Shown piece after piece: positions 17,783 through 62,217 of a stretch of DNA of 64,000 nucleotides. Made by a program: the position numbers and the translations under genes. How positions within the stretch are numbered: the first letter of the stretch is position 1; each line of letters begins with the position of its first letter. The DNA is from Candidatus Bipolaricaulota bacterium. Its GTDB lineage: Bacteria > Patescibacteriota > Patescibacteriia > UBA11705 > DATKZF01. The stretch lies in contig DATKZF010000003.1 of NCBI GenBank assembly GCA_035528115.1, positions 487,089 to 551,088 of the forward strand, written 5' to 3'. The notes beneath the pieces were generated by a model that was not told the DNA's origin, did no database searches, and saw only the letters and a list, made by a program, of their open reading frames with translations.

Positions 17783-17811
17783 TTGACAAGAAACAAAACC
17801 GGTGTTAATAT
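17783..17811 (+). promoter_or_regulatory. Sigma-70 promoter TTGACA, 17-nt spacer, TAATAT, followed by a GGAGGTGG RBS at 17843-17850
   Basis: Read directly; it drives the GC-rich ORF that starts at 17855. Confidence 0.5.
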
Positions 17812-17854
17812 ATCGACGTCATTTCACATCTCACAATTTGCGTGGAGGTGGCAG

Positions 17855-18274
17855 ATGTCCGATGACAGAAAATTCGAGGAGGCTTTCCCGGGAAGCTATG
17901 GACACTCGCAGCTCGATGAGGAGATTCCGAGCCAAGGTTCGGATCCCGAGTCCATGCTGCTTCAGGGCGGCCGAGAGCTTCGCCTTGACATGATCGGTGA
18001 TGAACTGGTCAGAAGGCTGACGCCGCGGGAGGAAAAGATCCTGCGCATGCGGTTCGGCATCGGCGAGGACGATGAGTCTCCGCTGAAGGACAAGGACATG
18101 TCGGAGGAAACTCGACGGCGCGTGGAATTGATCGAGCAGAAGTCGTTGAGGAATCCCCGCCATCCCTGCCAGAAGAATCAAGCCGAAGCTCGTCGCCGAG
18201 TGCTTGAGCTTTTGGCGAAATCCCGGCGCGATCTCCGCGCAGTTGTCGACATCGAAGAAGAAGCCGTGGGCTAG
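17855..18274 (+). CDS. Small protein made of a sigma-70 (RpoD-type) region 3.2/4 fragment, GC-rich and foreign-looking
   Basis: LTPREEKILRMRFGIG...TRRRVELIEQKSLRNPRHP is near-identical in pattern to RpoD LTAREAKVLRMRFGI...TRERIRQIEAKALRKLRHP, but the HTH turn TLEEVGKQFDV is replaced by EDDESPLKDKDMSEE. GC is about 58% with G/C-ending codons. Confidence 0.5.
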   Translation: MSDDRKFEEAFPGSYGHSQLDEEIPSQGSDPESMLLQGGRELRLDMIGDELVRRLTPREEKILRMRFGIGEDDESPLKDKDMSEETRRRVELIEQKSLRNPRHPCQKNQAEARRRVLELLAKSRRDLRAVVDIEEEAVG

Positions 18275-18296
18275 CAAGCACAGTTGTTAGCCTCTC

Positions 18297-18320
18297 AAGG
18301 ACTCGAAATCGGGTCCTTTT
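18297..18320 (+). terminator. Hairpin GGACTCG-aaat-CGGGTCC (one G-U pair) plus TTTT
   Basis: Directly after the stop of the sigma-fragment ORF. Confidence 0.55.
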
Positions 18321-18375
18321 AAAATTGTTTTAAGCCTTGAAAAAAAGGGTTGATTGGGATAGAATGTTAATGTTG

Positions 18376-18874
18376 GGTTACAAATTACAAATGAAGACGA
18401 ATAACACAAATGGTTACAAATATGCCTAATGATAAGGTCATATATCCGGAATTGAGTTATCAAATAGTCGGAATTTTGTTCGACGTGCACAATGAGATTG
18501 GAGGCAAAGTGAGCGAGAAAGTTATTTCGCGGGCAATCGCGTCGGATTTGGATAACTGTCATCTCAAGTATGAAAAAGAAATACAGGTCCCCGTTTTCTA
18601 CAAAGGAAAGCAGATTGGATATTATTTTCTTGATTTCTTAATAGAGGGGAAAATTGTGCTGGAAATAAAAAAGGGCTTTCGATTCGCAAATAAAGATTTT
18701 GATCAAATACATGATTATTTGCAGTCAACCGGTTTGAAATTGGGCATCTTGGCGATATTTTCGGACACAAAAGTAAAATTCAGAAGAATACTAAACGAGT
18801 ATTAATTTTTATTAAACAATGAATACAAATTTGTATTCATTTGTAACATTTGTACGGATTTGTAATTTGTAACC
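18376..18874. mobile_element. Mini-cassette bounded by perfect 16-bp inverted repeats GGTTACAAATTACAAA (18376-18391 and 18859-18874) carrying one GxxExxY-family gene
   Basis: Left inverted repeat GGTTACAAATTACAAA; right TTTGTAATTTGTAACC is its exact reverse complement. An 18-bp palindrome GAATACAAATTTGTATTC sits at the 3' side of the cargo. Confidence 0.6.
18410..18805 (+). CDS. GxxExxY-family small protein (TIGR04256-like, putative PD-(D/E)XK fold)
   Basis: Family-typical core VPVFYKGKQIG...DFLIEGKIVLEIK...QIHDYLQSTGLKLGILAIF and an N-terminal G..SE.V helix. Confidence 0.6.
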   Translation: MVTNMPNDKVIYPELSYQIVGILFDVHNEIGGKVSEKVISRAIASDLDNCHLKYEKEIQVPVFYKGKQIGYYFLDFLIEGKIVLEIKKGFRFANKDFDQIHDYLQSTGLKLGILAIFSDTKVKFRRILNEY

Positions 18875-18876
18875 TT

Positions 18877-21279
18877 ATGAAAAAGTATAATCATCAAAAA
18901 ATCGAAAAAAAATGGCAAGACTTATGGGAAGAAAAAGAGGTCTTTCAGGCTTTGGATTTTGATAAAACCGACAAGCCCAAATATTATTGTCTGATAGAAT
19001 TTCCTTATCCGTCAGGCCAGGGACTTCACGTGGGTCATCCGAGAAGCTACACGGCCATGGATGTCATTGTCAGAAAGAAAAGAATGGAAGGCTATAATGT
19101 TTTATTTCCCATCGGCTGGGACGCTTTTGGTTTGCCCACGGAAAATTACGCCATCAAGACGGGCATTCATCCGAAGCTGGCCACCTCGCAAAACATTAAA
19201 AGATTCACTCAGCAAATCAAAAGTCTGGGCTTGAGTTTTGACTGGTCAAGGGAAATAAACACCACCGATCCCAAATATTACAAATGGACGCAGTGGATTT
19301 TTTTGAAACTTTACGAAAACGGTTTGGCTTATAAAAAGAAAATAGCCATCAATTGGTGCCCGTCATGCAAAATCGGTTTGGCCAATGAAGAAGTGATAGA
19401 CAACAAATGCGAGCGTTGCGGCCATCAGGTGGAAAGACGAGACATGGAGCAATGGCTTTTGAAGATCACCGAATACGCCGATCGTTTGATTGAAGATTTG
19501 TCCACCGTGGATTATCCCGAGAGCGTCAGATCCGCGCAGATCAATTGGATCGGCAGGAGCTATGGCGCGGAAGTGGATTTTAAAATCAAAGATTCGGATA
19601 AGAAAATAACGGTGTTCACGACCAGGCCGGACACGCTTTTCGGCGCCACCTACGTGGTGCTTTCGCCGGAGCATGAATTGGTTTCAAAAATAACGGCCAA
19701 GGCTCAAAAAGCCAAGGTCGAAAAATACCAATTGGCGGCCAGAAAGAAATCCGATTTGGAAAGAACCGAAACCGGCAAGGAAAAGACGGGCGTTTTCACC
19801 GGCGCTTTTGCCATCAATCCGGTCAATGGAGAAGAATTGCCGATTTGGATCGCCGATTATGTTTTAGCCAATTACGGCACGGGCGCGATCATGGCCGTGC
19901 CGGCTCATGATGAGCGGGATTTTGAATTCGCGACCGCTTATAAATTGCCGATTGTGGAAGTGATTACAGGTGGAAATATAACCGAGCAAGCATACACGGG
20001 AGAGGGTGAATTAATCAATTCCGACTTTCTAAACGGTCTGACGGTCGAGGAAGCCAAAGACAAAATGATCGCTTGGTTGGAAAAAAACGAGGCCGGCAAG
20101 TACGCGGTCAATTATAAATTGAGAGATTGGGTTTTTTCGCGTCAACATTATTGGGGCGAGCCCATCCCGATCGTTTTTTGCAAAAAATGCGGGGAAGTGC
20201 CAATCCCGGAAAAAGATTTGCCCGTGGTTTTGCCCAAAGTCGATAATTACAAACCGACTGAGACCGGCGAGTCTCCCTTGGCGAATATTAAAGAATGGGT
20301 GAACGTCAAATGTCCGAAATGCGGCGGCCCAGCCAGAAGGGAAACTGACACCATGCCGAATTGGGCGGGCAGTTCCTGGTATTTTTTACGCTATTGCGAT
20401 CCGAAAAACGATAAAGCTTTTGCCGATCCGGACAAATTGAAATATTGGCTGCCCGTTGATTTGTACAACGGCGGCATGGAGCACACCACTTTGCATTTGC
20501 TGTATTCTCGATTTTGGCACAAATTTTTATACGATATTGGCCAAGTGCCGACTGCAGAACCGTACGCGGCGCGTCGCTCGCACGGCATGATTTTGGGCGA
20601 AGACGGCCAGAAAATGTCCAAATCCAGGGGCAATGTCATTAATCCTGATGGAATTATCAAAGAATACGGAGCTGATGTTTTGCGCGTTTATGAAATGTTT
20701 ATGGGGCCGTACGGCCAGGCCATTTCCTGGTCAACCAGCGGTCTTAACGGCGCGCGCCGATTTTTGGATCGGGTCTATAATTTCAAAGCGTTCAAAAACA
20801 ACGGTCATGAAGATGATCCGAACACTTTGATGCTTTTGCATCAGACCATAAAAAAGGTCACCGAGGACATCGATAAAATGAGATTCAATACTTGCGTTTC
20901 CGCTCTGATGATTTTGCTCAATGATTTTGAAGAGAAAAAAGTCGTGTCCAAAGACACTTGGAAAAAATATCTGATTTTGCTCTCGCCGTTCGCCCCTCAT
21001 CTGGCCGAAGAGCTGTGGAGTGAAATGGGTGAGAAAAGATCGATTTGTTCCGTGGCTTGGCCGGAGTATGACAAGGATAAGATCGTGGAAGAAAAAGTGA
21101 AAATCGTGGTTCAGATCAATGGCAAGCTTAAAGTGAGTTTTGAGGCCGAGGCCGGCATCTCCGAAGATGAGGCCAAGGAAGACGCTTTGGGATTGGAAAA
21201 GGTCAAGCAGGCGCTTAAAGATAAAAAAATAAAGAAAACGATTTTCGTTAAGGATAGGTTGATCAATTTCGTGGTTTGA
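18877..21279 (+). CDS. leuS: Leucine--tRNA ligase
   Basis: HIGH-type motif [14 protein letters not shown], editing domain and a zinc CxxC...CxxC. The ATG lies 2 nt after the right inverted repeat of the upstream cassette. Confidence 0.95.
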
Positions 21280-21336: not shown

Positions 21337-21394
21337 GGAACCGCCATGCAGAGACGCGTCATGGCGCGTCTCTGCATGGCGGTTCTTTGTTTTC
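21337..21394 (+). terminator. Long perfect hairpin GGAACCGCCATGCAGAGACGCG-tcatgg-CGCGTCTCTGCATGGCGGTTC plus T-rich tail (AGAGACGCG family)
   Basis: 22-bp stem; a second short hairpin AAAAACGGTTTTT/AAAAACCGTTTTT precedes it at 21307-21333. Confidence 0.75.
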
Positions 21395-23135: not shown

Positions 23136-23408
23136 CTACCGGTTTTTGAATGCCAGCAGCACGCACAACCAATAGACGATCGCCACGCGCTTTGCGATTT
23201 CGCGTTTGCGGATGTCCATGGCGGTCCTTTCCCAGCCTCCGCCGGACAAGCCGGCGCTGCCCGCTCTAAAGCCGCCCTTGGGCGACGACTCGGCGGCCAC
23301 GTAGCGGGAGAGAGATTGTCTCTCCGGCGTACCGGTTAAGGCCTCCTTTCCGGCTTCGGTTGTGCGATTGGCAACTTTGCCCGGCACAACGGATTTTTCT
23401 GGGTCCAT
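23136..23408 (-). CDS. Hypothetical GC-rich small protein with a single C-terminal TM anchor
   Basis: RBS-like GAGGG upstream of ATG (MDPEKS...); C-terminus KRVAIVYWLCVLLAFKNR is hydrophobic; high-GC3 codons. Coding status is uncertain. Confidence 0.25.
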   Translation of the reverse strand: MDPEKSVVPGKVANRTTEAGKEALTGTPERQSLSRYVAAESSPKGGFRAGSAGLSGGGWERTAMDIRKREIAKRVAIVYWLCVLLAFKNR

Positions 23409-23586
23409 TCCTAGACCCTCAGGACCTCGGAGCTCACTTGAATCCTCCTGTCGATCTGGGCGCACGTGTCTGTATTATTATAACATAAAAAAGCGTAAAA
23501 ATTCGCAAAAAAATGCTCATTGGGAGTTGTTTTTATTTTTGGAGTAATTGCGGTATAATGTTTGTGCTAAAAACTTTCTGAATATT

Positions 23587-24678
23587 ATGAAAATAGCGCT
23601 TATTCACGACAATTTGGTGCAGGAAGGCGGAGCTGAAAAGGTGCTGGCCGCCTTGTGCGAGATGTTTCCGGAAAGTCCGGTTTTTACCTTGGTACATAAT
23701 AAAAATAAGACTCAGTCTTTTTGGGGCAATAAAGAAATCAGGACGTCTTTTCTTCAAAAATTGCCTTTTGGCGTCAGCAAATTTCAATGGTTTTTAATGT
23801 GGATGCCCGCGGCTACGGAAAAGCACGATTTGAGCGAGTTTGATTTGATCATCTCCAGCTGTTCGGATTTCGCCAAGGGCGTCATTACCAAGCCGACCGC
23901 CAAGCACATCTGTTATTGCCACACGCCCACCAGGTATTTGTGGATTGAAAGCCAGAAATACGTGGACACTTTGAGAAAAAATAGCTTGGTGAAAAAATTC
24001 CTGCCCATTGCCTTGAGCAAATTGCGCTTATGGGACAGAATGGCCGCTGACAGAGTGGATGTCTTCGTGGCCAATTCCAATGTGGTCGCGCAAAGAATAA
24101 AAAAATATTACGGACAAGACAGTCGAGTTATTTTTCCTCCGGTGGAAACCTCCAAATTTTTCATCAGCTCTCGGCCCAAAAAATATTTTTTGGCCGGTGG
24201 CCGGTTGGTGCCGTACAAAAGGTTTGACTTGGCCATTACCGCGTTCAATCGACTCAATATGCCGCTGAAAATATTCGGCGACGGTTCGGAAAAAAAGAAT
24301 TTGATGAAACTGGCCAAAAACAACATTGAATTTTTAGGTAAAGTTTCGGATTCTAAAAAGGCTGAACTTTTCGCGGACAGCAAAGCGTTCATCAATCCGC
24401 AGGAAGAAGATTTCGGCATCACCAGCATCGAGGCCATGGCCAGCGGCCGTCCAGTAATCGCTTTTCGAGCCGGCGGCGCGCTCGACACGGTCATTGACAA
24501 TGAAACCGGAATTTTTTTCGACAGGCAAAATTGGGAAGATCTCGCTTATCGCGTCCTGAGCTTTGACGAAAAATCGTTTGACCCTGAAACGATCAGAGCG
24601 CACGCTCAAAATTTCGATTTGGAAATATTCAGGAATAAAATGAAAGAATTGATTTCCAGCCAGCCGCTAATGGATTAA
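23587..24678 (+). CDS. GT4-family glycosyltransferase (glycosyl transferases group 1)
   Basis: N-terminal MKIALIHDNLVQEGGAEKV and a C-terminal GT4 donor-binding region (FGITSIEAMASGRPVIA). Confidence 0.85.
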   Translation: MKIALIHDNLVQEGGAEKVLAALCEMFPESPVFTLVHNKNKTQSFWGNKEIRTSFLQKLPFGVSKFQWFLMWMPAATEKHDLSEFDLIISSCSDFAKGVITKPTAKHICYCHTPTRYLWIESQKYVDTLRKNSLVKKFLPIALSKLRLWDRMAADRVDVFVANSNVVAQRIKKYYGQDSRVIFPPVETSKFFISSRPKKYFLAGGRLVPYKRFDLAITAFNRLNMPLKIFGDGSEKKNLMKLAKNNIEFLGKVSDSKKAELFADSKAFINPQEEDFGITSIEAMASGRPVIAFRAGGALDTVIDNETGIFFDRQNWEDLAYRVLSFDEKSFDPETIRAHAQNFDLEIFRNKMKELISSQPLMD

Positions 24679-24687
24679 CGATCCGAT

Positions 24688-25824
24688 ATGAAAAACATCG
24701 CCATCGACGTTCGGTGCCTCCTGGAGGAGCGGCTGACCGGCGTCGGAGAATACACTTTTAATCTTTTAAAGTCGATTTTCGATATTGATCGCAATAATCA
24801 ATATTTTTTATTTTACAATCAAAGCGAGCCGTTTTTGGGGCATATTAAAAAGCTGGAAGCTGAAAACGTCACGCTCTGCGGATTCAAGATTCCCAATAAA
24901 TTTTTGAATTTGTCGCTAGGGGTGTTCGGCCGGCCTTTTTTGGATTCGCTGGTCGAGACTCAATGCAAGACTAAAATTCATCAGTTTTTTTTCCCCAACA
25001 TCAATTTTTTGTCGGTATCCCCGCTATGCAAATATATGGTCACTTGCCATGATTTATCTTTTGAAATTTTTCCGTATTTTTTTTCAACCAGACAAAAATT
25101 ATGGCACAAGGCGGTCAGGCCAAAAAGAATCTTCGAGCGCGCGGAAAAAATAATTTCGGTTTCCGCCAACACTAAAAAAGATTTGATTCAAGAATACAAT
25201 TTGAACCCCAATAAAATAGAGGTTATTCATTCGGGCATTGATATTAATTTGGACAAGTCAAAAAACGGAGAAATAAAAAGAAAATACGATTTGCCCGAGC
25301 GCTACATTTTGAGCTTGGGCACTCTGGAGCCCAGAAAGAATATTGAAACGCTCATCCAAGCGTTTGCCATGCTCAAAAAGCAAACCGAGGCGCCTCACAA
25401 ATTGATTATCGCCGGCGGCAAAGGCTGGAAGTACAAAAAGATTTTCGAGCTGGCCGCGAAAACAGATTTGGCCAAAGATATAATTTTTATCGGCTACATT
25501 CCGGCGTCGGACAAACCCAATATTTTGGCGCTGGCCGATGTTTTCGTTTATCCGTCTTTTTACGAAGGTTTCGGTTTTCCGCCCATTGAAGCCATGGCTT
25601 CGAGATGTCCGGTTATTTCCAGCCATGTGGCCTCGTTGCCGGAAATTTGCGAGAACGCGGCGCTGTTGATCGATCCTTACAGCATAGTGGATTTGTTTTT
25701 CGCCATGAAGGAAGTTTTGCGAGACAAAAATTTGAGAGTCAGTCTGATCGGCAAAGGGTTCGTGCAATCTTCGAAATTTTCGTGGCCGGAAGCGGCGGAG
25801 AAATTTTTAAAATTGATAAATTAA
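24688..25824 (+). CDS. GT4-family glycosyltransferase
   Basis: EGFGFPPIEAMASRCPVISS donor-binding motif; GT-B fold pattern. Confidence 0.85.
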   Translation: MKNIAIDVRCLLEERLTGVGEYTFNLLKSIFDIDRNNQYFLFYNQSEPFLGHIKKLEAENVTLCGFKIPNKFLNLSLGVFGRPFLDSLVETQCKTKIHQFFFPNINFLSVSPLCKYMVTCHDLSFEIFPYFFSTRQKLWHKAVRPKRIFERAEKIISVSANTKKDLIQEYNLNPNKIEVIHSGIDINLDKSKNGEIKRKYDLPERYILSLGTLEPRKNIETLIQAFAMLKKQTEAPHKLIIAGGKGWKYKKIFELAAKTDLAKDIIFIGYIPASDKPNILALADVFVYPSFYEGFGFPPIEAMASRCPVISSHVASLPEICENAALLIDPYSIVDLFFAMKEVLRDKNLRVSLIGKGFVQSSKFSWPEAAEKFLKLIN

Positions 25825-26130
25825 TGCTACGGATAGTTAATTCTAATAGGACAAGCTATGTTTGGGTGTAATCGTTTGCTACGGATATGAACTTCCAAAT
25901 AGCTTGGCTATGCGAATAAATTTAAAATAGCGACAGCATGGCTGAAGCTATTGTCGCGGGCGCTCGGCCTGCGCGGCGATGCGCGCGAATTCTTCGTATG
26001 TGTTGAATCCCATGACGACCATGCGGTGGTAAGTATCGCCGTTGTCGTCCGCGTCAGCGAAGATGTGCGGAGATGAGTCCGGCGTGATTCGTTCTACCCA
26101 CGCCTGAGATCCGCCAGGGAATGACTGAAT

Positions 26131-26322
26131 TCAGGTTTGCGCGGCATGAGCGTTCTCCTTGCCGTTGGCCAGGGCGTTGTATTTGTTGATGCCCATGATA
26201 ACAGCCACTTCGCGGCCGTTTTCGCAGATGAAGCTGATGGGCGCTTCCGGTCGGCAGTGTTGGGGGAGCCTCTCCCGCAACTTGTCGATCGGAGTTCTGT
26301 CTCGGATAATGTCGCTTGGCAT
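26131..26322 (-). CDS. Phd/YefM-family type II antitoxin-like protein (62 aa) in a GC-rich islet
   Basis: AAGGAGG RBS 5 nt upstream; APISFICENGREVAVIMGINKYNAL matches the Phd/YefM beta-strand/helix core (ITRxGKPVAVLxSxEEYExL). Confidence 0.5.
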   Translation of the reverse strand: MPSDIIRDRTPIDKLRERLPQHCRPEAPISFICENGREVAVIMGINKYNALANGKENAHAAQT

Positions 26323-26379
26323 GGCGTCCTCCTTGGTTGATATGATAAAATTAGCATAGGACGGCGGGATTGACAAATT

Positions 26380-26604
26380 CATGGATCACATATCATGGAG
26401 CACATAGCACGTATCATGCCTGCCCGCCGTAGCTTAAGAGCGAAGGCGGGGATCACCTATCATGAAACAAAAGAACATGAGACGGAAAAACAGAGAAACA
26501 AGGCCGACGCTGTTGTCATCTCGACCGAAGCGGAGAGATCTTTTCCTAATTCTTCGGAATAGATTTCTCCATCCCCAATTTCTAATTTCCGGTTTCTTAT
26601 TACC
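26380..26604. repeat. Dispersed intergenic repeat, copy A, directly upstream of the GT4 gene at 26624
   Basis: Shares a roughly 110-nt core with 46322-46547 (CATGAAAC..AAGGCCGACGCTGTTGTCATCTCGACC..GAAGCGGAGAGATCTTTTCCTAATTCTTCGGAATAGATTTCTCC..TCCGGTTTC..ATTACC) and an ATCATGGATCAC head that also appears inverted at 40565-40612. Confidence 0.65.
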
Positions 26605-26623
26605 CATTATTGTTAAATAAATT

Positions 26624-27748
26624 ATGCGCATAGGCATTGACGCTCGAATGTACGGCAGTCAGCAGACCGGCATCGGCAATTACATTAAAAATCTGACCGA
26701 GGCGCTTTTTGAAATCGATCGAAAGAACGAATACGTTTTGTTTTTGAGAGAACCGCAATTTTCCGAATATCAAATCCCTTATGCGAACGTTAAAAAAGCC
26801 AAAGTCACCCCGCGTTGGTACGGTTATGGAGAACAGCTGATTTTGCCTTTTCAATTGATGAGGGAAAAAATCGATATCATCCATTTCCCGCATTTTAATT
26901 CTCCGCTTTTTTATTTCAAACCGTCCGTGGTCACCATTCATGATGTGACCCCTTATCACTTCCCGGGACATCGCATGTCGTCATGGCTTCGGCGAGCCGG
27001 ATTTCGGCTGATTTTCAAGAATTCGGTCAAAAGAGCCCGCCAAGTCATCTGCGTGTCGCAAAGCACAAAAAACGATGTGATCAAGTATTTTCACGTTCCT
27101 GAGGATAAGCTGTTGGTAACTCACCTGGGGGTAAAAAAGCATTTTCGAAAAATTGAAAATCATGGTATAATAAATAAGTTGAAAGAAAAATACGGGATAA
27201 AAAAGCCCTTCATTTTTTACGTTGGCGTGTGGAGAAACCATAAAAATTTGCCGGGCCTGCTGAAAGCTTTTCAATTGCTTAAAACGCGATACAAATTGGA
27301 CTATCAATTGGTGCTGGGCGGCAATGAAGATCCTCATTATCCGGAGGTTCGCCAGACTTGGGAAAAATTGGGTCTGGCCAAGGACATTGTTTTGCCCGGA
27401 TTCATTCCGGAAAAGGAATTGCCTCTTTTTTACAATGCCGCGGCCGCTTATGTCATTCCTTCGTTCATCGAAGGATTCGGTCTGATCGGCATTGAAGCCA
27501 TGGCCTGCGGCGCGCCGGTCGTTTCTTCAAACACCAGCAGTTTGCCCGAAGTTTTGGGAGACGTGGCCGAATATTTCAATCCCGAAGACGAAAATGAAAT
27601 GGCGCGAAAAATATTCGAAGTTTTAACGGACAATGACAAGCGTTCAAAAATGGTTGCCAAAGGGTTTGAACAAATAAAAAAATATTCGTGGGAAGATTGC
27701 GCTCGAAAGACGCTGGACGTTTACGAACGGATTTATAAAAATAAATAA
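26624..27748 (+). CDS. GT4-family glycosyltransferase
   Basis: MRIGIDAR...GIGNY N-terminus and EGFGLIGIEAMACGAPVVSS. Confidence 0.85.
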   Translation: MRIGIDARMYGSQQTGIGNYIKNLTEALFEIDRKNEYVLFLREPQFSEYQIPYANVKKAKVTPRWYGYGEQLILPFQLMREKIDIIHFPHFNSPLFYFKPSVVTIHDVTPYHFPGHRMSSWLRRAGFRLIFKNSVKRARQVICVSQSTKNDVIKYFHVPEDKLLVTHLGVKKHFRKIENHGIINKLKEKYGIKKPFIFYVGVWRNHKNLPGLLKAFQLLKTRYKLDYQLVLGGNEDPHYPEVRQTWEKLGLAKDIVLPGFIPEKELPLFYNAAAAYVIPSFIEGFGLIGIEAMACGAPVVSSNTSSLPEVLGDVAEYFNPEDENEMARKIFEVLTDNDKRSKMVAKGFEQIKKYSWEDCARKTLDVYERIYKNK

Positions 27749-27750
27749 TT

Positions 27751-30273: not shown

Positions 30274-30276
30274 ATT

Positions 30277-32289: not shown

Positions 32290-32326
32290 CGCAAAATAAA
32301 TTCCAAGTTCCAAATATCAAATGTAT

Positions 32327-32359
32327 TAAAATAGCGGAAAGCTTGTCTTTTCGCTATTT
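32327..32359 (+). terminator. ATAGCGGAAAG-cttgtc-TTTTCGCTAT hairpin plus T run (AGCGGAAAG family)
   Basis: Imperfect stem located after the 30277-32289 gene. Confidence 0.5.
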
Positions 32360-32591
32360 TATGATAATTGTTTTTTTACTTCCAATTTGGTTTGCCTGCG
32401 ATTGTATGTTTTTTTGCTGGCTATCTTTTTCGTCGGCCGATGCAAAACGCCGGATTTTTTGCGGGTTTTTCGGCGAAGGCTTTTGATTTTTTCTCCGGGA
32501 GAATCGTAAATTTTAACAATGATTTTCTTTTTCATAAAATTTTTTGTTTTGTTGAATTAATTATATCATGAATTTATTTTCGGCGCGCGGG

Positions 32592-32644
32592 CGTCCGGGG
32601 GCGGCCGCCCTCGGACGTAGAGACGCGCCATGGCGCGTCTCTAC
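32592..32644. repeat. Two consecutive GC-rich hairpins: CGTCCG..CGGACG and GTAGAGACGCGCC-atgg-CGCGTCTCTAC (AGAGACGCG family)
   Basis: The second hairpin is nearly identical to those at 21352 and 51584. Confidence 0.6.
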
Positions 32645-33752: not shown

Positions 33753-34100
33753 TTACTTCTTCTTGCTCTTCTTGCCCTTCTCCTTACGAGCCTGGGACTG
33801 CAGCCCGGTCTGGCCCGACTCGGAGCCCTTGCTCTGGAGTCGGATCTCGCGATCGTTGTCGGCCCGCGCCTTGCGCCGCGCCTCCTGGTCCGCCGGCCGT
33901 CCCTTGCGGACGCCGCCGGGGCGGTTGAATTCCATTTTTCGGCCCCCGCTCCAACTGCCCCAGGGGGAGCTGACGGAGGATCGTCGGTTGCACTCCTCGA
34001 TGCGCTTGAGCACGAGCGGTGGTGGCTCCACGGAGACGAGCACGCATTTCGTCTGGGTCGGGGTGGGATCGGATTCTTTCGTGATCGCAACCATGTTCAT
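33753..34100 (-). CDS. Hypothetical small basic protein (115 aa) with a lysine-rich C-terminus inside a GC-rich islet
   Basis: Strong AAGGAGGG RBS 5 nt upstream of ATG and a TTGACA -35-like element; the sequence is not low-complexity except for the KEKGKKSKKK tail. Confidence 0.35.
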   Translation of the reverse strand: MNMVAITKESDPTPTQTKCVLVSVEPPPLVLKRIEECNRRSSVSSPWGSWSGGRKMEFNRPGGVRKGRPADQEARRKARADNDREIRLQSKGSESGQTGLQSQARKEKGKKSKKK

Positions 34101-46326: not shown

Positions 46327-46547
46327 ATCATGGATCATGAAACGAAAGAATATGAGACAGAAAGACAGAGAAACAAGGCCGACGCTGTTGTCATCTCGAC
46401 CTCTCGACCTTGCTCGGGGCAGGCCGAAGCGGAGAGATCTTTTCCTAATTCTTCGGAATAGATTTCTCCAACCCCAATTTTTCCGCCAAAGGCGGATCCG
46501 CCTCGGGCGGATAATTTCCGGTTTCCGGTTTCCGGTTTCTCATTACC
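46322..46547. repeat. Dispersed intergenic repeat, copy B (with insertions), upstream of porA
   Basis: Same core as 26380-26604; it carries an extra (TTTCCGG)x3 tract. Confidence 0.65.
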
Positions 46548-46588: not shown

Positions 46589-46640
46589 CGTAAAAAAATA
46601 AGGCAAAGGCAAGCTAATTAGTTTTAAGAATTCGTAACGT

Positions 46641-47741: not shown

Positions 47742-48157
47742 CTTGTAGGTTGTAGGTGGCAAAATATGGAAAAACAAGTAATAAACAGTTATAAGGATTT
47801 GATTGTTTGGCAGAAAGCCATGGACTTGGTGGTTGCCGTTTATAAGCTTACGGATAAGTTCCCAAGAGAAGAAGCGTACGGGCTTACTTCTCAGATGCGA
47901 CGCAGCTCCATTTCCATTCCTTCAAATATTGCGGAAGGAAGAAGGCGCGGAACAAGAAGAGAGTACAGGCACTTCTTAATTGTCGCGTATTCATCGGGAG
48001 CTGAGCTTGAAACTCAACTTGAAATCGCGAAAAGATTAAATTTTTCGGAAGATATCGTTTATAATGTCGCTGCTGATTTATTAGAGGAGATTATGAAAAT
48101 ATTAAATTCAATGACGTCGTCGCTTTATGTCTAAAGCCACCTAATCAGCTAACAAGC
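47741..48157. mobile_element. Cassette bounded by imperfect inverted repeats GCTTGTAGGTTGTAGGTGGC (left) and GCCACCTAATCAGCTAACAAGC (right) carrying a four-helix-bundle gene, inserted between porA and porB
   Basis: The outer 6 bp (GCTTGT) and inner 8 bp (TAGGTGGC) of the two arms are perfect reverse complements. An empty abutting-palindrome version is at 45979-46040. Confidence 0.55.
47766..48134 (+). CDS. Four-helix-bundle protein (TIGR02436, the 23S rRNA intervening sequence protein family)
   Basis: YKDLIVWQKAMDLVVAVYKLTDKFPREEAYGLTSQMRRSSISIPSNIAEG...GAELETQL matches the family consensus closely. Confidence 0.7.
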   Translation: MEKQVINSYKDLIVWQKAMDLVVAVYKLTDKFPREEAYGLTSQMRRSSISIPSNIAEGRRRGTRREYRHFLIVAYSSGAELETQLEIAKRLNFSEDIVYNVAADLLEEIMKILNSMTSSLYV

Positions 48158-51552: not shown

Positions 51553-51613
51553 AAAACGACGAATGAAAATTCGTCGTTTTATTGTAGAGGCGCGCCGCGG
51601 CGCGTCTCTACAA
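51553..51613 (+). terminator. Two hairpins after porB: AAAACGACGAAT-gaaa-ATTCGTCGTTTT and GTAGAGGCGCGCC-gc-GGCGCGTCTCTAC (AGAGACGCG family)
   Basis: Both are perfect or near-perfect inverted repeats. Confidence 0.65.
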
Positions 51614-51752
51614 TGGCGGCATCGCCGCCCGCGGCCGCCTTTTGACGCCTTTCAAAAATTGTGTTAAACTGATTCGCAAGGTGTTTAACTTCCCGACGAG
51701 AAAAAAAACGAAAAATTTCAAAAAACTTTTCGCCTCACTCGTCGCGTTTTCT

Positions 51753-54629: not shown

Positions 54630-54783
54630 TTAATGATTATTCGCAGCCATTTGTGGCAAACCCATAAACCAAAAACCAAGGCAAGCCATTCAGACGCTAT
54701 GATTTGTAATGTGTTTGTAATAAATATGACGCTAAGGCTAGCTAAGTAGCCGCAATAATTCGTAACGTGTTTGTAACGTATTT

Positions 54784-54812
54784 AAAAAGCTGTCTATGTT
54801 TAGACAGCTTTT
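54784..54812. terminator. Bidirectional hairpin AAAAGCTGTCTA-tgtt-TAGACAGCTTTT
   Basis: Perfect 12-bp stem between convergent uvrA and the REC gene. Confidence 0.7.
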
Positions 54813-55255
54813 TTCGTGGTTTTCCTTTTTTTCGAGAAAAGGCTTATGATCAAATCGATCAATCTTGCCGGACGCAGGGGCTTGTCGATGTAAGCGTCGG
54901 GCTCAAACAGCGGCGAGGTCAGAGCATTGATGTCCGGTCCAATGCCGGTCATGATGATGATCACCGGAGTTTGTCCATCCTTTTTTTCTTCCAGACGGAT
55001 GTTCTTGCATGCCTCCCAGCCGTTCATGGCGGGCATCATCACGTCCAGAAGGACGATATCCGGACAATGCTCGCGGTAGAGTGTTACCGCTTCGCATCCG
55101 TCGGCAGCTTTGAGCAGCTCTGCCTCGGGGAAGGCGCGACTAAAGATGGTTCCCATCATGTCTACCAGAAATTGGTCATCGTCAGCCACCAGGATGCTGG
55201 CGGGAATTGCTCCGGCGACAACCCTTTGTACCCATTTTATTTTCGGATCTCCCAT
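54800..55255 (-). CDS. Stand-alone response-regulator receiver (CheY-like REC) domain protein
   Basis: ILVADDD...LLDVMMPAMNGWE...IIMTG REC motifs with the phospho-acceptor Asp; no output domain, and no kinase in the window. GC-rich codons. Confidence 0.7.
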   Translation of the reverse strand: MGDPKIKWVQRVVAGAIPASILVADDDQFLVDMMGTIFSRAFPEAELLKAADGCEAVTLYREHCPDIVLLDVMMPAMNGWEACKNIRLEEKKDGQTPVIIIMTGIGPDINALTSPLFEPDAYIDKPLRPARLIDLIISLFSKKRKTTKKAV

Positions 55256-55337: not shown

Positions 55338-55658
55338 TTATTTGATTTCTCTAAGTCTTTTATGAGTGGTTCTAAGATGCCCAAGTTTCGCCCGCCTGAC
55401 TTTGTATTCTTTGGCTGTCTCTATTTTTTCAATAACCGGTGAATGCAAGGGGAAGATTTTTTCAACTCCGATGCCGTCCGAGACTTTTCTGACCGTGATC
55501 GTGGCTCCGATTTCAGAGCCATGTTTTCTGGCCAAAACCAAGCCTTCAAAAATCTGGACTCTTTCTTTTTCTTCTCCTTTGGGTGTTAACTCTTTGATTC
55601 TTTGATGCACCGCGACCACTTTGCCGGGCTGAACTTCAGGGTAAATATCTTTTTTCAT
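55338..55658 (-). CDS. rplS: 50S ribosomal protein L19
   Basis: 106 aa; IFEGLVLARKHGSEIGATITVRKVSDGIGVEKIFPLHSP matches L19. Confidence 0.9.
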   Translation of the reverse strand: MKKDIYPEVQPGKVVAVHQRIKELTPKGEEKERVQIFEGLVLARKHGSEIGATITVRKVSDGIGVEKIFPLHSPVIEKIETAKEYKVRRAKLGHLRTTHKRLREIK

Positions 55659-55810
55659 AGGGTTACAAATTACGAATGTTTTGTAAAAAGGTTACCAATG
55701 GTTACGAATTTACAAATAATTTTTAGTTTATTATAAATTTTATCTCGTATGCTAAAGCCTGTACATCTTGTAACTAACAGATATGATTTTAGCTTTTTGG
55801 AGAGAAATTG

Positions 55811-59013: not shown

Positions 59014-60003
59014 TTAGGCGGCAAAATCGAAAATTTGCTTTTCGATGTCCGCTCGAGGGATCAGGCCTTCCCCGGACTGATTGACCAGCCTTAGAATGGT
59101 CTGGTTGTCGAGTCCGTTACTTGCGAGAATCTCTTTCGCTTCCTTCCTGCTTAGGATACCTTGTCCGCGCAGACTGGACATGGCCTTGAGCAGAGTCTCT
59201 TTGTCTTCTCCCACGGCGGCCATGAAGGCGGATAGAATCCATTTGCTGGTTTGCTTGATGGAAAGCAGGGCGTCGCAAATTCTGTCCACGTTCCAGTTGT
59301 TTGCCAGCAATGAAACGACGATTCTGCCCGCAGTCCACTTGGCCGGTCCGAACAGCTGGCGATAGAGGTGCGAAGCGATATTGTAGTCGCTCCACTTGGC
59401 GCTCTCCAGGGCGCGGATTATTCTCGAATCTTTCCAGCCGGCCGCTTGCAGCGCTCGGAACGTTTGATCCGGACCGATTTTCGTGTCCCCGAACGCCTTG
59501 ACGATCCGCATGTCGCCCCAGCCGATGATCGAAAGGATGGAAACAATGATGTCAAAGGTGTCGAATTTCCAAATGTTGGCAACTAGCTCGTCGTCCGTCC
59601 AGACTCGCGACAAGGCTTTGCAGATCCGACGCAAGGCTTTTTTTCGCGTCTTGTCCGGCAATTTCGTGCCCGGCTTGTCCTCCGTGAAGCCGATCTGGTA
59701 GCACAGGAGAAAACTATCGTGCAGAAAATACAAGCCATTTGCGACCATAAGCAGTTCCACCAGGTATTTTTTCTCAATGGCGGAGTGCCGCAAGGCGCGC
59801 ACGATCTTGGCGTCGAACCAGCCGGCCGCGAAAAGGTCATTGACGATCTCGATGTTTCGCCTTTTCTCTTCAAGCGACCCCGGGGTTTTGGAAAAACCCA
59901 GGCCGGCGAGCAGGGTTTGATCGATTCTGGCGATATTTGCCGGGTGTTTTTTCGCCAGTCTGTCCGCTTCGCGCAGAGTTTTTTTCAGTATCGCCAAATC
60001 CAT
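59014..60003 (-). CDS. Repeat protein with 6 or more copies of a roughly 30-aa motif a-G-W-x-D-x-R-I-(V/I)-R-A-L; function unknown
   Basis: AAGWFDAKIVRALRHS, IIGWGDMRIVKAFGDT, AAGWKDSRIIRALESA, KWSDYNIASHLYRQL, KWTAGRIVVSLLAN, NWNVDRICDALLSI; AAAAAGGAGGGGGAC RBS before ATG. Confidence 0.45.
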   Translation of the reverse strand: MDLAILKKTLREADRLAKKHPANIARIDQTLLAGLGFSKTPGSLEEKRRNIEIVNDLFAAGWFDAKIVRALRHSAIEKKYLVELLMVANGLYFLHDSFLLCYQIGFTEDKPGTKLPDKTRKKALRRICKALSRVWTDDELVANIWKFDTFDIIVSILSIIGWGDMRIVKAFGDTKIGPDQTFRALQAAGWKDSRIIRALESAKWSDYNIASHLYRQLFGPAKWTAGRIVVSLLANNWNVDRICDALLSIKQTSKWILSAFMAAVGEDKETLLKAMSSLRGQGILSRKEAKEILASNGLDNQTILRLVNQSGEGLIPRADIEKQIFDFAA

Positions 60004-60078
60004 GTCCCCCTCCTTTTTGCCGTACAGATAAGTTAGCATGAATCCATAATTAAAAAAAGCCGGCTTGGTGAAGCTGGC

Positions 60079-60552
60079 TTAAAATCCGGGAGGCAGATTG
60101 GGATTGATGGCTTGAGACAATGACCTTCTGAAGGCGAGGAAGCTTTCCGGCGTTCGAAAGAATTTCGCCATGTCGGTTATCCTGCCATGGCCATTGCCGT
60201 AAACCGCCAAAGTGGCGACGGAGTTCTCTCCTGCTTGAATGCTGTGCCATACATCCGGCGCCAGACTCAACTGACAAATGCTGTCGTTATCTAATTTCTT
60301 TGGGGGCATGGCGACACATTGGTGATTTCCATCTTTGTCCCAGAGATGCACAACGACGCTGTTGTTTCCGCCGGTGACCGTCAAAAAAGCCATTTCTCCT
60401 TCATTGTAGGCTCCGTCGGCGTATTGAGTGCCGGGAGAGATCATTTGAATCGACGGGAGCCCATCCGGCCCGTCGTCTATTTTAGGGTAGGAGTGGCTGG
60501 GGGAGCAGACGAGGAGGCATCCTCCTAACAGTGTTTGTTTCGTTGCGCCCAT
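60079..60552 (-). CDS. Small cupin-like protein, possibly a WxcM/FdtA-like sugar 3,4-ketoisomerase fold (weak)
   Basis: AAAGGAGG RBS. PDVWHSIQAGENSVATLAVYGNGH resembles the P.VWH..........VLAS.Y segment of FdtA/WxcM-type cupins. Only weak similarity is seen by eye. Confidence 0.35.
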   Translation of the reverse strand: MGATKQTLLGGCLLVCSPSHSYPKIDDGPDGLPSIQMISPGTQYADGAYNEGEMAFLTVTGGNNSVVVHLWDKDGNHQCVAMPPKKLDNDSICQLSLAPDVWHSIQAGENSVATLAVYGNGHGRITDMAKFFRTPESFLAFRRSLSQAINPNLPPGF

Positions 60553-60645
60553 CGTTTCCTCCTTTGTTCTGAAAGGAAGTTTACTTGGCCGGTCGGGTTT
60601 TGTCAATTTAAAAGCGGCGGATTGATAAGACAATCGCCGCTTGAG

Positions 60646-60831
60646 CTATTTGGATGTTTTGATTTTTTTTCTGGAAGAAATCCCCGTGCCGAGAATTACC
60701 GAGCTTAGGAACATTCCTCCTCTCCCGATGGTCAGCGACAATCCGGGAATACCAAAGGAAACGCTGATGCCGTTACGTGAAAAACTCAGCCACAAGTTAC
60801 GGCCAAGTCTGACGTGTGTTCTGAAATTCAT
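60646..60831 (-). CDS. DUF4236-family small protein, copy A (61 aa counting from the internal Met)
   Basis: MNFRTHVRLGRNLWLSFSRNGISVSFGIPGLSLTIGRGG...ILGTGISSRKK matches the DUF4236 pattern (M.FR..I.LG.G.RLN.SK.G.S.S.G.PG...........G.PGTG.S). Coordinates could be off by 1 nt. Confidence 0.5.
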   Translation of the reverse strand: MNFRTHVRLGRNLWLSFSRNGISVSFGIPGLSLTIGRGGMFLSSVILGTGISSRKKIKTSK

Positions 60832-60880
60832 GTTGCCTCCGTTTAAAAGCGGCGGATTGATAAGACAATCACCGCTTGAG

Positions 60881-61066
60881 CTATTTGAATTTTTTGATTT
60901 TTTTTCTCGAAGAAACACCCGTGCCCGGAATGCCCGTATTGAGAAAAATTCCTTTTCTGCCAATGTTAATCGATATGCCTGGGATGCCGATAGAGAAGCT
61001 GACGCCGTTTTTTGAAATATTCAAGCGCGCATTGCGGCCGAGCCTGATTCTTTTTTGGAAGCGCAT
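60881..61066 (-). CDS. DUF4236-family small protein, copy B (61 aa)
   Basis: MRFQKRIRLGRNARLNISKNGVSFSIGIPGISINIGRKGIFLNTGIPGTGVSSRKKIKKFK; tandem paralogue of copy A. Confidence 0.6.
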   Translation of the reverse strand: MRFQKRIRLGRNARLNISKNGVSFSIGIPGISINIGRKGIFLNTGIPGTGVSSRKKIKKFK

Positions 61067-61129
61067 GACTTTATCTCCTTTTCAAGAAAAGAGGCGGCTT
61101 GGATTGTCCAAACCGCCTCATGTCATTGA

Positions 61130-61663
61130 TTACTCCTTCTTGCGGCCGGCGTCCTTTTCCGGAGCCTCTTCGAGAACCTTGATCTTGGTGATGGCCTCGA
61201 AGGCCGGCTCGAGCTGCTGGAGCAGGGTTGCCATCATTTCACGGCCCGTGCCCTGCATGCAGTACTCGGCCACCTTGGCCACGGTCTCGCAGTTGGGGAT
61301 GAACCCGTACTGCGTGGACAGGTAGTGCACCGCGCTGGCCACGAACAGCGGCTCGAGCATGTGGCCGAGCGCGGTGTCGAAGAACTTGGGGTAGGTGTCG
61401 CCCAAGGTGCGGCGCAAGATGCCAATCATCAAGTCGCACGCTTCTTCGGATCCGGCGATCTTGGCGCCGTGCTTGAGGTTGACTGTGACAGCATGGAGAG
61501 TCTGATTGGGCTTGTCGGTCATGCTGGACATGGTGGTTTCTCCTTGGGTGGTGGTTTGTTTATCGGTCTGCGGTATTTCGCCGAGCGCCTGGGCTGCGTC
61601 CTCTCCTGCAGCCTCGCCGAGCGCTTCGGCGATTCTTTTTTTGACATCCTTGACACTGCTCAT
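61130..61663 (-). CDS. Hypothetical protein (about 177 aa) with very GC-rich, G/C-ending codons; foreign-looking
   Basis: GGAAGGAG RBS. The ATG overlaps the upstream gene's stop (TAATG). Codons are dominated by ctg/gtg/gcc/aag/ttc/cac, unlike host genes. No recognisable domain. Confidence 0.4.
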   Translation of the reverse strand: MSSVKDVKKRIAEALGEAAGEDAAQALGEIPQTDKQTTTQGETTMSSMTDKPNQTLHAVTVNLKHGAKIAGSEEACDLMIGILRRTLGDTYPKFFDTALGHMLEPLFVASAVHYLSTQYGFIPNCETVAKVAEYCMQGTGREMMATLLQQLEPAFEAITKIKVLEEAPEKDAGRKKE

Positions 61664-62217
61664 TAATTTTCTCCTTCCGTTACCGCATCCTCTTTTTTTT
61701 CTTTCTTCTCCTCCTTCTTGGTTCCCTTCTCCTTGCCCCCATTCTTCCTGAGGGCTTTCTCTTTGTCTTGCCGCGAAAGAATGCTCTCCATGAGAGCATC
61801 GATGACGATTTGGACTGATAGCCATGAGTCGCATTGCCCCAGCTCACGAATGACATCATCGTCATCAATGACTGAAGTCTTGACGTGGTCTTTTAGCGAA
61901 TCTCCCAGAATAAGGTAGCATAAGTGGCAATGCGGGCAGATTTTGATGAAGTCGCCGGCAAACTTCATGATGATATAGTAGTGACTCCTGCACTCATAGC
62001 ATGGCTGAGCGGTGAAGAAATGGACAGCCTTGCTTGGGTTGCCGGCCGCGTTTTCGATTCGTCTTTTCAAAGCGCTAATGATGGCTTCTCCATTGATTTC
62101 CCACGGATTCTTGTGTGAAAAATAGTTAATAAGCTCTTTTCTTACGTTAATGTCCATGTCTTGAGCTCCTTTGTCTCCGCGGGTTTTTAAGTTATCAATG
62201 AACATGTAAGGAAGCAT
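61663..62217 (-). CDS. Hypothetical zinc-ribbon protein (CxxC...CxxC) with a K/E-rich C-terminal tail
   Basis: CYECRSHYYIIMKFAGDFIKICPHCH; the tail is KEKGTKKEEKKEKKED. A TATAAT lies immediately upstream of the ATG, so the transcript may be leaderless. Confidence 0.4.
   Translation of the reverse strand: MLPYMFIDNLKTRGDKGAQDMDINVRKELINYFSHKNPWEINGEAIISALKRRIENAAGNPSKAVHFFTAQPCYECRSHYYIIMKFAGDFIKICPHCHLCYLILGDSLKDHVKTSVIDDDDVIRELGQCDSWLSVQIVIDALMESILSRQDKEKALRKNGGKEKGTKKEEKKEKKEDAVTEGEN

Follow-up and report, generated by a model that had tools for sequence, protein, structure and literature searches.

Short GC-rich islets in a Patescibacteria chromosome segment: accessory genes led by Shine–Dalgarno sites, most with syntenic copies in sister genomes

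Contig DATKZF010000003.1 of assembly GCA_035528115.1 carries, at positions 487,089 to 551,088, a stretch of 64,000 nucleotides in which short GC-rich islets interrupt a backbone of mostly housekeeping genes. We call this stretch the window (positions below count from its first letter), its genome W, and the related genomes sisters A, B, C and D, plus a closer relative, W2. An initial annotation, made from the letters alone, had listed seven islets and had read them as many small, independent acquisitions from a high-GC donor or host, or from a phage. Here, we show that the islets are not a run of recent foreign insertions. They are a class of fast-evolving, lineage-restricted accessory genes led by Shine–Dalgarno (SD) sites, together with the gene for RNase P RNA and some non-coding DNA.

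The window has a GC content of 45.4%, and the short GC-type units make up about 10% of it. Its backbone contains rpoBC, ftsH, infB, trxB, gdh, rnhB, leuS and the genes for TrmB regulators, GT4 glycosyltransferases and DUF4012, as well as trpS, uvrA, gmk and the genes for RNase J, PFOR subunits, ribosomal protein L19 and the CCA enzyme. It is a piece of a Patescibacteria (candidate phyla radiation, CPR) chromosome, and the closest leucyl-tRNA synthetase (LeuRS) sequences are labelled Patescibacteria. Because these LeuRS relatives and the sister genomes are all Patescibacteria, the NCBI label ‘Candidatus Bipolaricaulota’ on the metagenome-assembled genome (MAG) with these exact proteins (HUT226xx) is probably wrong.

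The islets belong to this genome and are not assembly artefacts, so the earlier preference for domestication over contamination was right. JGI contig Ga0307379_10000002 (604 kb) matches the window at 100% identity, and a Logan contig from a separate sequencing run, seen in 3 samples, matches 34890–40498 exactly and therefore spans both junctions of islet 5. The islet proteins are on record only on W's own contigs (604,316, 604,021, 621,551 and 762,837 bp; JGI, ENA, NCBI and Logan), and at least four assemblies carry all of them. Their 90%-identity clusters contain no sequence from any other genome. W2 and the four sister genomes show the same arrangements. A chimeric assembly, or a high-GC contaminant in the bin, has the compositional contrast as its sole support, and against these matches we consider it improbable to the point of being negligible.

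Genes and features of the islets

The features of the islets, and two genes next to islet 7, are as follows.

17783–17811, plus strand: promoter-like site of islet 1, TTGACA-17-TAATAT with an extended −10 TG (consensus match only)
17855–18274, plus strand: islet 1, sigma-70 region 4.2-like protein of 139 aa, GC 0.58, with a GGAGG SD site upstream
23136–23408, minus strand: islet 2, open reading frame (ORF) of 90 aa with a hydrophobic C-terminal tail, GC at third codon positions (GC3) 0.73
25937–26322, minus strand: islet 3, doubled Phd-like ‘IMGIN’ gene with an AAGGAGG SD site upstream
32568–32720, no strand: GC-rich palindromes at the left edge of islet 4, including a copy of AGAGACGCGCCATGGCGCGTCTCT; minimum free energy (MFE) z-scores −6 to −8
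32744–32912, no strand: two hairpins in islet 4, z-scores −3.9 to −6.6
32913–33752, minus strand: non-coding stretch of islet 4, 840 nt, GC 0.58, downstream of the 115-aa ORF on the same strand
33753–34100, minus strand: islet 4 ORF, clearly coding, basic protein of 115 aa, GC3 0.84, with a AAGGAGGG SD site
34398–34426, minus strand: putative promoter pointing into the islet 4 unit, TTGACA-17-TATAAT with TG, 12/12 (consensus match only)
36496–37181, minus strand: non-coding part of islet 5, bacterial class A RNase P RNA (RF00010), 686 nt, GC 0.47, which is backbone level
37322–38674, minus strand: islet 5 gene, divergent adenylosuccinate-synthetase-like (PurA-like) protein, GC 0.59
54800–55255, minus strand: islet 6, stand-alone response-regulator receiver (REC) of 151 aa with an AAGGAGG SD site
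59014–60003, minus strand: unlisted gene for an alpha-helical repeat (alpha-solenoid) protein of 329/341 aa with a AAGGAGGGGG SD site
60079–60633, minus strand: ORFan of 184 aa upstream of the alpha-solenoid gene, GC 0.51, two-fold share (defined below) intermediate at 0.43
61130–61663, minus strand: islet 7, ORFan of 177 aa, GC 0.60, GC3 0.80, with an AAGGAG SD site

The initial annotation had called islet 1 a sigma region-4 fragment, and the protein has a partial match to RpoD region 4.2. Its start is at 17855 and not at 17762, from which NCBI annotates 170 aa. The region-4 matches in NCBIfam (E=6e-9), PHROGs and PADLOC (MzaA) cover only the C-terminal end of RpoD, and no Pfam match was found at E≤0.01. 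As it is only 139 aa long, the protein cannot be a complete sigma factor. The putative promoter would yield a leader of about 40 nt that holds the SD site.

For islet 3, called Phd/YefM-like antitoxin at first, the doubled Phd-like motif is there; the scores lie under the curated cut-offs (16.2 bits vs 29.8 and 16.1 vs 20.8, Pfam/TIGRFAM) and no toxin partner gene sits beside it, so it does not qualify as a Phd/YefM antitoxin. The gene runs through two reading frames (26131–26322 and about 25937–26110) via a stop and a frame change, and its sister counterparts are single ORFs of 104–110 aa. The split could mean that the gene has become a pseudogene or that a programmed frameshift is required.

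Islet 5 had been described as non-coding DNA plus a PurA-like gene. The PurA-like part stands, and the non-coding part turned out to be RNase P RNA. The protein, called as 458 aa from 38698 with a likely start at 38674, matches Pfam Adenylsucc_synt with 320 bits (E=2.5e-95), aligns over its full length to solved PurA structures (PDB) and lies under the NCBIfam equivalog cut-offs (304 bits vs 402 and 273 vs 395.6). The motifs GD.GKG, GGNAGH, GTYPYVTSS, TTGR.RR and KLDVLD are found in the alignment, with E14 and R131 replaced. PurZ of the 2-aminoadenine pathway was rejected as an identity (NCBIfam NF038379, 83.9 bits vs a cut-off of 300).

Islet 6 is the orphan receiver domain it had been taken for: Pfam Response_reg scores 62.6 bits vs a threshold of 30.2, DDD, LLDVMMP, IIIMTG and DKP are found in the translation, the protein has no output domain, and no histidine kinase is encoded within the window. 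The alpha-solenoid ORF was called at 59014–60039 on the minus strand (341 aa) and probably starts at 60003 (329 aa). Its model (pLDDT 86) is an alpha-helical repeat solenoid, and its PDB matches are to generic helical repeats only.

Composition of the islets

We took as backbone the 34 clearly housekeeping or Pfam-supported genes of the window, and as two-fold share the fraction of G/C-ending codons in the nine two-fold families. All seven listed islets are present and distinct: 400-nt windows peak at a GC of 0.52–0.64 in every one of them, and the two-fold share is 0.55–0.83 in islet genes vs 0.35±0.04 in the 34 backbone genes (maximum 0.45), a gap much too large to be due to chance. Their edges are sharp, with GC down to 0.14–0.34 within 50–100 nt of the ends of the coding sequences. 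The list had missed an eighth GC-type gene, the alpha-solenoid gene at 59014–60039(−), with an islet-like two-fold share of 0.59. The backbone had been described as low in GC and rich in aaa, gaa, att and ttt codons. This holds for lysine and glutamate (AAA 78%, GAA 76%); at 45% GC and a GC3 of 0.55 the backbone is not strongly low in GC, and ATT/ATC and TTT/TTC are each used at about 50:50.

Islets and core differ in amino-acid content and in their codons from two-fold and six-fold families, and the contrast does not lie at four-fold degenerate sites. GC at four-fold sites (GC4) is 0.67±0.10 in the W core vs 0.75±0.07 in the islets. In contrast, the G/C-ending share is 0.45 in the core vs 0.74 in the islets for pyrimidine-ending two-fold codons and 0.26 vs 0.47 for purine-ending ones, leucine is encoded by CTN at 0.42 vs 0.76 and arginine by CGN at 0.42 vs 0.70, and the GARP amino acids (Gly, Ala, Arg and Pro) make up 0.21 vs 0.30. 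Overall, the islets are shifted by +10 points at first (GC1) and second (GC2) codon positions and by +25–45 points at two-fold sites. Their synonymous site classes converge near one value (pyrimidine-ending two-fold 0.74, CTN 0.76, CGN 0.70, GC4 0.75). Non-coding or decayed DNA is GC-rich as well, at 0.58 in the islet 4 tail and 0.59 in the out-of-frame half of islet 3. The REC gene, although the best candidate for horizontal gene transfer (HGT), has a GC4 of 0.64, which is backbone level.

Two simple causes were rejected. High expression does not explain the GC-type composition, given that the L19, rpoB/C and infB genes are not GC-type. Structured RNA is not a general cause: islets 2 and 4 and a GC-rich spacer of sister B have no Rfam match, and the coding islets have a period-3 signal and protein homology.

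Start signals

The strong ribosome-binding sites that had been noticed on islet genes are real and largely confined to them. An SD core at positions −18 to −4 precedes 7 of 8 islet genes vs 1 of 39 backbone genes (Fisher p=1e-6), and the islet sites are usually a perfect AAGGAGG at a distance of 5–8 nt. No SD site was found in about 25 core genes that we inspected, and internal core genes also have none. The sister orthologues all keep their SD sites, even where their composition is host-like. Within the sisters, the genes with a GC offset are enriched in SD sites (8 of 11 vs 23 of 84; 95 genes, Fisher p=0.005). Across five related genomes a conserved minority of genes has a perfect AAGGAGG at a spacing of 4–9 nt, which argues for continued use of the anti-SD.

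Some core genes have a consensus promoter that abuts the ATG, for example at 62334–62361 (TTGACA-16-TATAAT), which ends 6 nt before the start at 62368. More generally, a TTGTAA...CGTAAC-type motif and consensus −10 boxes end 2–7 nt before the start codons of core genes (16993–17126, 18376–18424, 18826–18889, 40470–40564, 46594–46640, 54666–54768, 55646–55677 and 62334–62361), and the GTAAC-type motif recurs at many starts within the 64 kb. From their position, these motifs suggest that leaderless or very short-leader transcripts may be widespread.

Islet 7 and the alpha-solenoid gene are both SD-led second genes of two-gene operons, each of which ends in a strong terminator. Islet 7 follows a host-type gene at 61663–62217, with the terminator at 61119–61091, and the alpha-solenoid gene is followed by a terminator at 59012–58986. 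A promoter-like site lies at 60606–60578, in the region of the 184-aa ORFan.

Sister genomes

Sister genomes were found via protein matches and contig look-ups. Sister A is ENA contig k141_1433182 (segments L004, L171 and L173; 388 kb, about 35% GC), B is GCA_049319825.1 (L172; 385 kb, 45.7% GC), C is L007 (38% GC), D is L168 and the closer relative W2 is L175 (JGI 3300063041); all sampled family members have backbones of 31–46% GC. LeuRS anchor scans of genome and metagenome contigs gave best matches of 64% and 60% without synteny and were dominated by generic motifs. By housekeeping proteins W, A and B form a rough trichotomy, with LeuRS identities of 75, 76 and 77%, and gene order is conserved between W and the sisters.

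Five of the GC-rich genes have syntenic orthologues in the sisters, whose housekeeping identity to W is about 75%, which contradicts the initial claim of many small, independent acquisitions. These are the sigma-region-4-like gene of islet 1 (L171 9504–9824 and L172 9462–9788; hhalign probability 94.9%, E=5e-8), the split Phd-like gene of islet 3 (L171 20791–21123 and L172 20768–21082; hhalign 93.4%, with colinear doubled motifs), the PurA-like gene (in A, C and D, adjoining the RNase P RNA gene, which the sisters carry at the same position), the 177-aa gene of islet 7 (L173 6109–6573; 52–58% identity, E=2e-55) and the 329/341-aa alpha-solenoid gene (L173 8001–8975 and P0369 of genome B). For three units no counterpart was detected in the sisters: the REC gene, the 90-aa ORF of islet 2, and the 115-aa ORF of islet 4 with its 0.85-kb non-coding tail.

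The composition of the orthologues differs between genes. The PurA-like, islet 3 and 341-aa orthologues in A, C and D are host-like and AT-rich; the islet 1 and islet 7 orthologues are 11–12 GC points above their AT-rich host. The sisters also hold GC-rich ORFans of their own in a variable stretch after the sugar transferase gene, and one such family is common to A and D (L004 15510–15950 and L168 5058–5411). The islets and the GC-rich genes of the sisters have a codon dialect in common (r=0.54–0.76), which resembles generic high-GC usage.

Distances give a mixed picture. In the 341-aa family the distances are about equal (37/38/38) and in islet 3 the outlier is not W, while for the PurA-like gene and islet 1 the W copies are outliers relative to sister–sister distances; for the PurA-like gene, W and the AT-rich copy of D are both on long branches. 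W2 differs from W by about 0.3–0.6 substitutions per synonymous site and has the same GC-rich PurA allele (GC3 0.70, or 0.70–0.71 in W and W2, vs 0.52–0.55 in the flanks), so the allele is old and predates the split of W and W2. GC4 of the core is 0.67–0.82 in W, 0.65–0.76 in B, 0.5–0.6 in C and about 0.3 in A and D. Saturation at synonymous sites was discarded as an argument against old imports, as four-fold distances are finite (about 0.9–1.2 for W–B) and confounded by composition.

Islets 2 and 4 mark the two ends of a block (23548–32535) whose orientation in W is opposite to that in sisters A, B and C. The block holds the genes from GT4a to DUF11 and, at 32362–32535, a gene for a basic protein of 58 aa that is homologous to s60 of sister B. 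Islet 2 has no tblastn match in the sisters, and no homology was found between it and sister spacers, of which that of B at the islet 2 position has a GC of 0.56–0.63. The 115-aa ORF of islet 4 shows no homology to the genes at the sisters' hotspot.

Search for donors

Only the REC gene points, by the sequence of its relatives, to a high-GC donor clade. Its nearest relatives are stand-alone, Myxococcota-type receivers at 43–50% identity; the named ones all belong to Myxococcota or Deltaproteobacteria, and the two contexts examined have 68–74% GC. The sister contigs gave no REC match. For all other GC-type genes the high-GC donor that had been proposed was not borne out: no donor-like sequence of any of them was found in the very large databases searched, their four-fold sites match the host core, and the nearest homologues of the PurA-like, 341-aa and islet 7 genes are the sister copies. 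The best match of the PurA-like protein has 53% identity, compared with 35% for ordinary PurA, and the 341-aa family comprises only five other clusters (exhaustive HMMER search, 1.84 billion representatives).

Nor did the suggestion of a phage source find support. Viral-contig scans, blastn of islet 4 against phages and plasmids and tblastn of four ORFans against phages returned nothing, PHROGs and PADLOC scans gave generic sigma, PurA and REC family matches only (the ORFans had none in PHROGs), and the window contains no integrase, no tRNA or tmRNA gene and no flanking direct repeats.

These searches bear on the idea that W acquired the islets separately and fairly recently from an unrelated high-GC host, neighbour or phage. 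The REC gene would fit, with no sister orthologue among the matches and relatives in genomes of 68–74% GC, and islet 2 and the islet 4 unit are W-specific and located at inversion breakpoints. As a general explanation it is refuted by the syntenic sister orthologues of 5 of the 8 GC-type genes; in addition, the PurA allele is older than the W2 split, phage and plasmid relatives are missing along with any integrase, tRNA gene or flanking direct repeat, and even the best REC identity is merely 43–50%. We therefore consider it very unlikely.

Origin of the GC-type genes

Our preferred explanation, held tentatively, is that the islets are mostly old accessory genes of horizontal origin that have followed the GC-ward shift of the W lineage more fully than the core. 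Such genes would mostly have been gained before the sister lineages split and been inherited vertically since, and an old horizontal origin would account for their SD sites, ORFan status and hotspot positions. Their GC-rich look in W would be largely home-made, from a GC-ward substitution bias in the lineage that appears to be visible at the four-fold sites of every core gene (GC4 of about 0.7 in W vs 0.3 in sister A), with B apparently shifted too. Codon–tRNA matching and protein constraint would keep the core on A/U-type codons in the two-fold and six-fold families and on AT-type amino acids, whereas the accessory class, the split gene and the non-coding DNA would have followed the bias at all sites. 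The same accessory genes would be AT-rich in the AT-biased sisters because composition follows the bias of each lineage. The REC gene would be a later import from a high-GC, Myxococcota-like lineage.

Several observations weigh against this explanation. Core genes that are equally divergent (TrmB2, DUF4012, DUF11, DsbA and RluD; 45–54% identity to the sisters) are not GC-shifted, with a two-fold share of 0.29–0.39 vs 0.59–0.75 in the islet genes with orthologues (p=0.0013). Weak constraint alone is therefore insufficient, fast evolution alone is ruled out on the same grounds, and an extra assumption is needed, such as an expression difference or tRNA-linked selection. The orthologues of islets 1 and 7 are GC-elevated even in the AT-rich sister A, and the GC-rich family at L004 15510–15950 and L168 5058–5411 has stayed GC-rich in two AT-rich sisters; to account for such cases, either GC-richer relatives must have transferred the genes or their composition must be actively maintained. 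The islet values would fit genes from a donor of about 58–60% GC just as well, so that the parity in GC4 may be a coincidence, and among the purine two-fold codons of the islets no more than 0.47 end in G. Furthermore, the direction of substitution is unpolarised (W vs W2 is symmetric, 19 vs 21), and intergenic DNA is AT-rich, though probably functionally constrained.

The GC-type genes could instead look donor-like simply because they were imported, and their composition would then be a residue of, or a renewal from, the donor. They may have been gained by the family ancestor with incomplete amelioration, or alleles may have been replaced in the ancestor of W and W2 (xenologous displacement) from a Patescibacteria relative of about 58–65% GC or from a mobile gene pool. 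We regard this as a close rival, a little less likely than our preferred explanation. The size of the shift at GC1, GC2 (+10 points) and two-fold sites (+25–45) is typical of HGT, the class is discrete and not graded, SD-type start signals stand amid an SD-less core, and the shared dialect is generic high-GC-like. The outlier position of the W copies of the PurA-like gene and islet 1 would also fit, the REC gene shows that high-GC DNA has entered the lineage, and 83% of inferred Patescibacteria transfers are intra-phylum (PMC12455944). However, no donor is on record and syntenic sister copies are always the nearest, the sampled family backbones are all at 31–46% GC, and neither the equidistant 341-aa family nor islet 3, in which W is not the outlier, behaves as expected. 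Replacement would be needed at no fewer than five loci, each exactly bounded by a coding sequence; GC4 is already at the host value, in the REC gene too; and the PurA genes of sisters A and C have no residue, although an import that old would be common to them as well.

Selection could also hold the SD-led class on GC-type codons and amino acids, through mRNA stability or structure or a separate translation regime, or GC-biased gene conversion could act on recombination-prone accessory genes. We judge functional maintenance or biased conversion of this kind unlikely. In its favour, the GC offset is kept across deep splits (islet 1 in W, A and B; islet 7 in W and A; the L004/L168 family in A and D), the GC boundaries are exact at the coding sequences, GC3 of PurA is 0.70–0.71 in both W and W2 after about 0.4–0.6 substitutions per synonymous site, and translational selection usually favours two-fold codons that end in C (0.74 in the islets). 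Nevertheless, the PurA, islet 3 and 341-aa orthologues have no offset in A, C and D, no known mechanism has so large an effect, conversion tracts should not end at the limits of coding sequences, and neither the L19 gene nor rpoBC is GC-type. A bolder form, which we regard as improbable, would have two gene ‘dialects’ kept by selection over deep time, an SD-less, promoter-proximal core with A/U codons and an SD-led accessory set with GC codons, because the two sets are translated under different regimes. These could be specialised initiation, other conditions or, at the extreme, an SD-dependent, GC-rich host cell that does the translating, and the dialects would then not be a passive trace of HGT or drift.

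Relation to known systems

Old accessory genes that follow a lineage-wide shift can be set beside directional mutation pressure, reportedly due to Sueoka, and the amelioration models said to come from Lawrence and Ochman. As in these frameworks, the sisters differ at weakly selected sites (GC4 of 0.3 vs 0.7) and less constrained sequence moves furthest; unlike in their simple versions, the response in W is class-specific and not graded with evolutionary rate. GC-rich structural RNA genes are said to stand out in AT-rich genomes, as reportedly described by Klein, Misulovin and Eddy in 2002. The likeness is that part of islet 5 is RNase P RNA and that the islet 4 tail folds more stably than shuffled controls; unlike in that system, the RNase P RNA gene of W is at backbone GC (0.47) and most of the GC-rich units code for protein.

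Patescibacteria undergo frequent HGT, mostly within the phylum, and genomic islands are known in them (PMC12455944). The islets resemble such islands in being short regions of deviant composition with accessory or ORFan genes at variable hotspots of a reduced CPR genome, and for at least one of the genes (REC) the closest relatives belong to another phylum. They differ in that they are mostly syntenic orthologues, not presence/absence insertions, and have no integrase, tRNA gene or direct repeats.

Genomes with dual start signals form a known class, and the GC of atypical genes is usually lower (PMC6028130); the islets of W are GC-richer than the host and host-like at four-fold sites. The arrangement recalls ‘group C’ of GeneMarkS-2 (leaderless first genes plus genes led by ribosome-binding sites; PMC6028130) in that some core genes of W have a −10 box about 6 nt before the ATG and other genes have SD sites. 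In contrast to ‘group C’, SD use in W is nearly confined to one compositional class (7/8 vs 1/39) and internal core genes are SD-less, in a comparison that covers 64 kb for W and is genome-wide for ‘group C’. Only 48% of the 16S rRNA genes of Parcubacteria were found to have an anti-SD motif (PMC9297842), and core genes without SD motifs match such reduced SD/anti-SD pairing. The difference is the conserved minority that keeps a perfect AAGGAGG in five related genomes; the 16S gene of W lies outside the window.

What is new is a set of GC-rich atypical genes that are syntenic in sister genomes, coupled to SD initiation in an otherwise SD-less core, and core-like at four-fold sites; we found no description of this in a limited literature search. 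Islands of deviant composition are routinely taken for recent HGT and, where the CPR bacterium is episymbiotic, for gene flow from the host. This inference fails here for most islets, given that synteny in sister genomes and GC at four-fold sites mark the GC-rich genes as long-term residents. The link between start signal and codon dialect across five related genomes offers a testable handle on translation initiation in SD-poor CPR, and it bears on the lineage shift from about 35% to about 45% GC and on how atypical genes in MAGs are interpreted, or filtered out as contamination.

Non-coding elements

Three non-coding elements stand out: the RNase P RNA for its size, a hairpin for its conservation, and a stretch that may be a new structured RNA. 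The RNase P RNA scores 142.8 bits vs an Rfam gathering threshold of 100, with model positions 1–367 fully covered. It is oversized in three genomes, at 686 nt in W, 599 nt in C (L007 11488–12086) and 607 nt in A (L004 12319–12925) vs the 367-position model, with insertions of about 186, 95 and 50 nt and a core that is 82–83% conserved between genomes.

The hairpin at 32744–32825 (about 85 nt) is kept at 84–86% identity in sisters A and C (L004 17782–17854 and L007 16379–16456), including its loop UUGGAGAGAGAUUUAAAGAACAU, in intergenic DNA that is otherwise unalignable in the three genomes. It adjoins the GC-rich genes that each genome has of its own, has MFE z-scores of −3.9 to −6.6 and has no Rfam match.

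The third candidate is the stretch at 32913–33752. It has no period-3 signal, its minus-strand MFE z-scores of −3.5 to −4.4 are like those of the RNase P control, and no match was found in Rfam or, by blastn, in phages or plasmids; it may be a new structured RNA, or a decayed gene or other decayed DNA.

The palindromes at the left edge of islet 4 are probably terminator hairpins. Copies of AGAGACGCGCCATGGCGCGTCTCT are also found at 21350 and 51586, just past gene ends, and a match of the islet 4 palindromes to RsmW is weak and below threshold. The GC-rich palindromes of this family, at 21338–21385, 32617–32650 and 51582–51617, directly follow 3′ gene ends. The one at 21338 looks like a terminator element of the REP (repetitive extragenic palindromic) type, because its 20-bp stem is followed by a T-tract.

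Other features of the window

The sequences of W that truly stand apart at four-fold sites are AT-rich, most clearly a 1.36-kb insert at 14355–15717 (GC 0.36, GC4 0.31–0.37). Its two SD-less genes encode a 184-aa lipoprotein-like protein and a 136-aa membrane protein. The insert is flanked by the TrxB and GDH genes, which are 107–132 nt apart in sisters A and B, and by four-fold-site composition no other recent insertion in the window is as clear.

Upstream of GT4c and of the PFOR alpha subunit gene, at 26452–26581 and 46327–46480, lies a repeat (about 125 nt, 91–98% identical) that could serve as a common regulatory leader or encode a small RNA. Between the 184-aa ORF and islet 7, a 235-nt unit is duplicated in tandem in the non-coding gap (60607–61047; 76% identity). 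At 47766–48134, a bAvd/23S-IVP-type gene adjoins the gene for an 816-aa protein (48163–50613) with a weak match to type IV secretion system (T4SS) pilin, and in sister A (L173 10896–16504) genes for a reverse transcriptase (RT)–RNase H and an AAA_5 protein lie near the 341-aa orthologue. The bAvd-type gene and the RT–RNase H neighbourhood may be related to retroelements.

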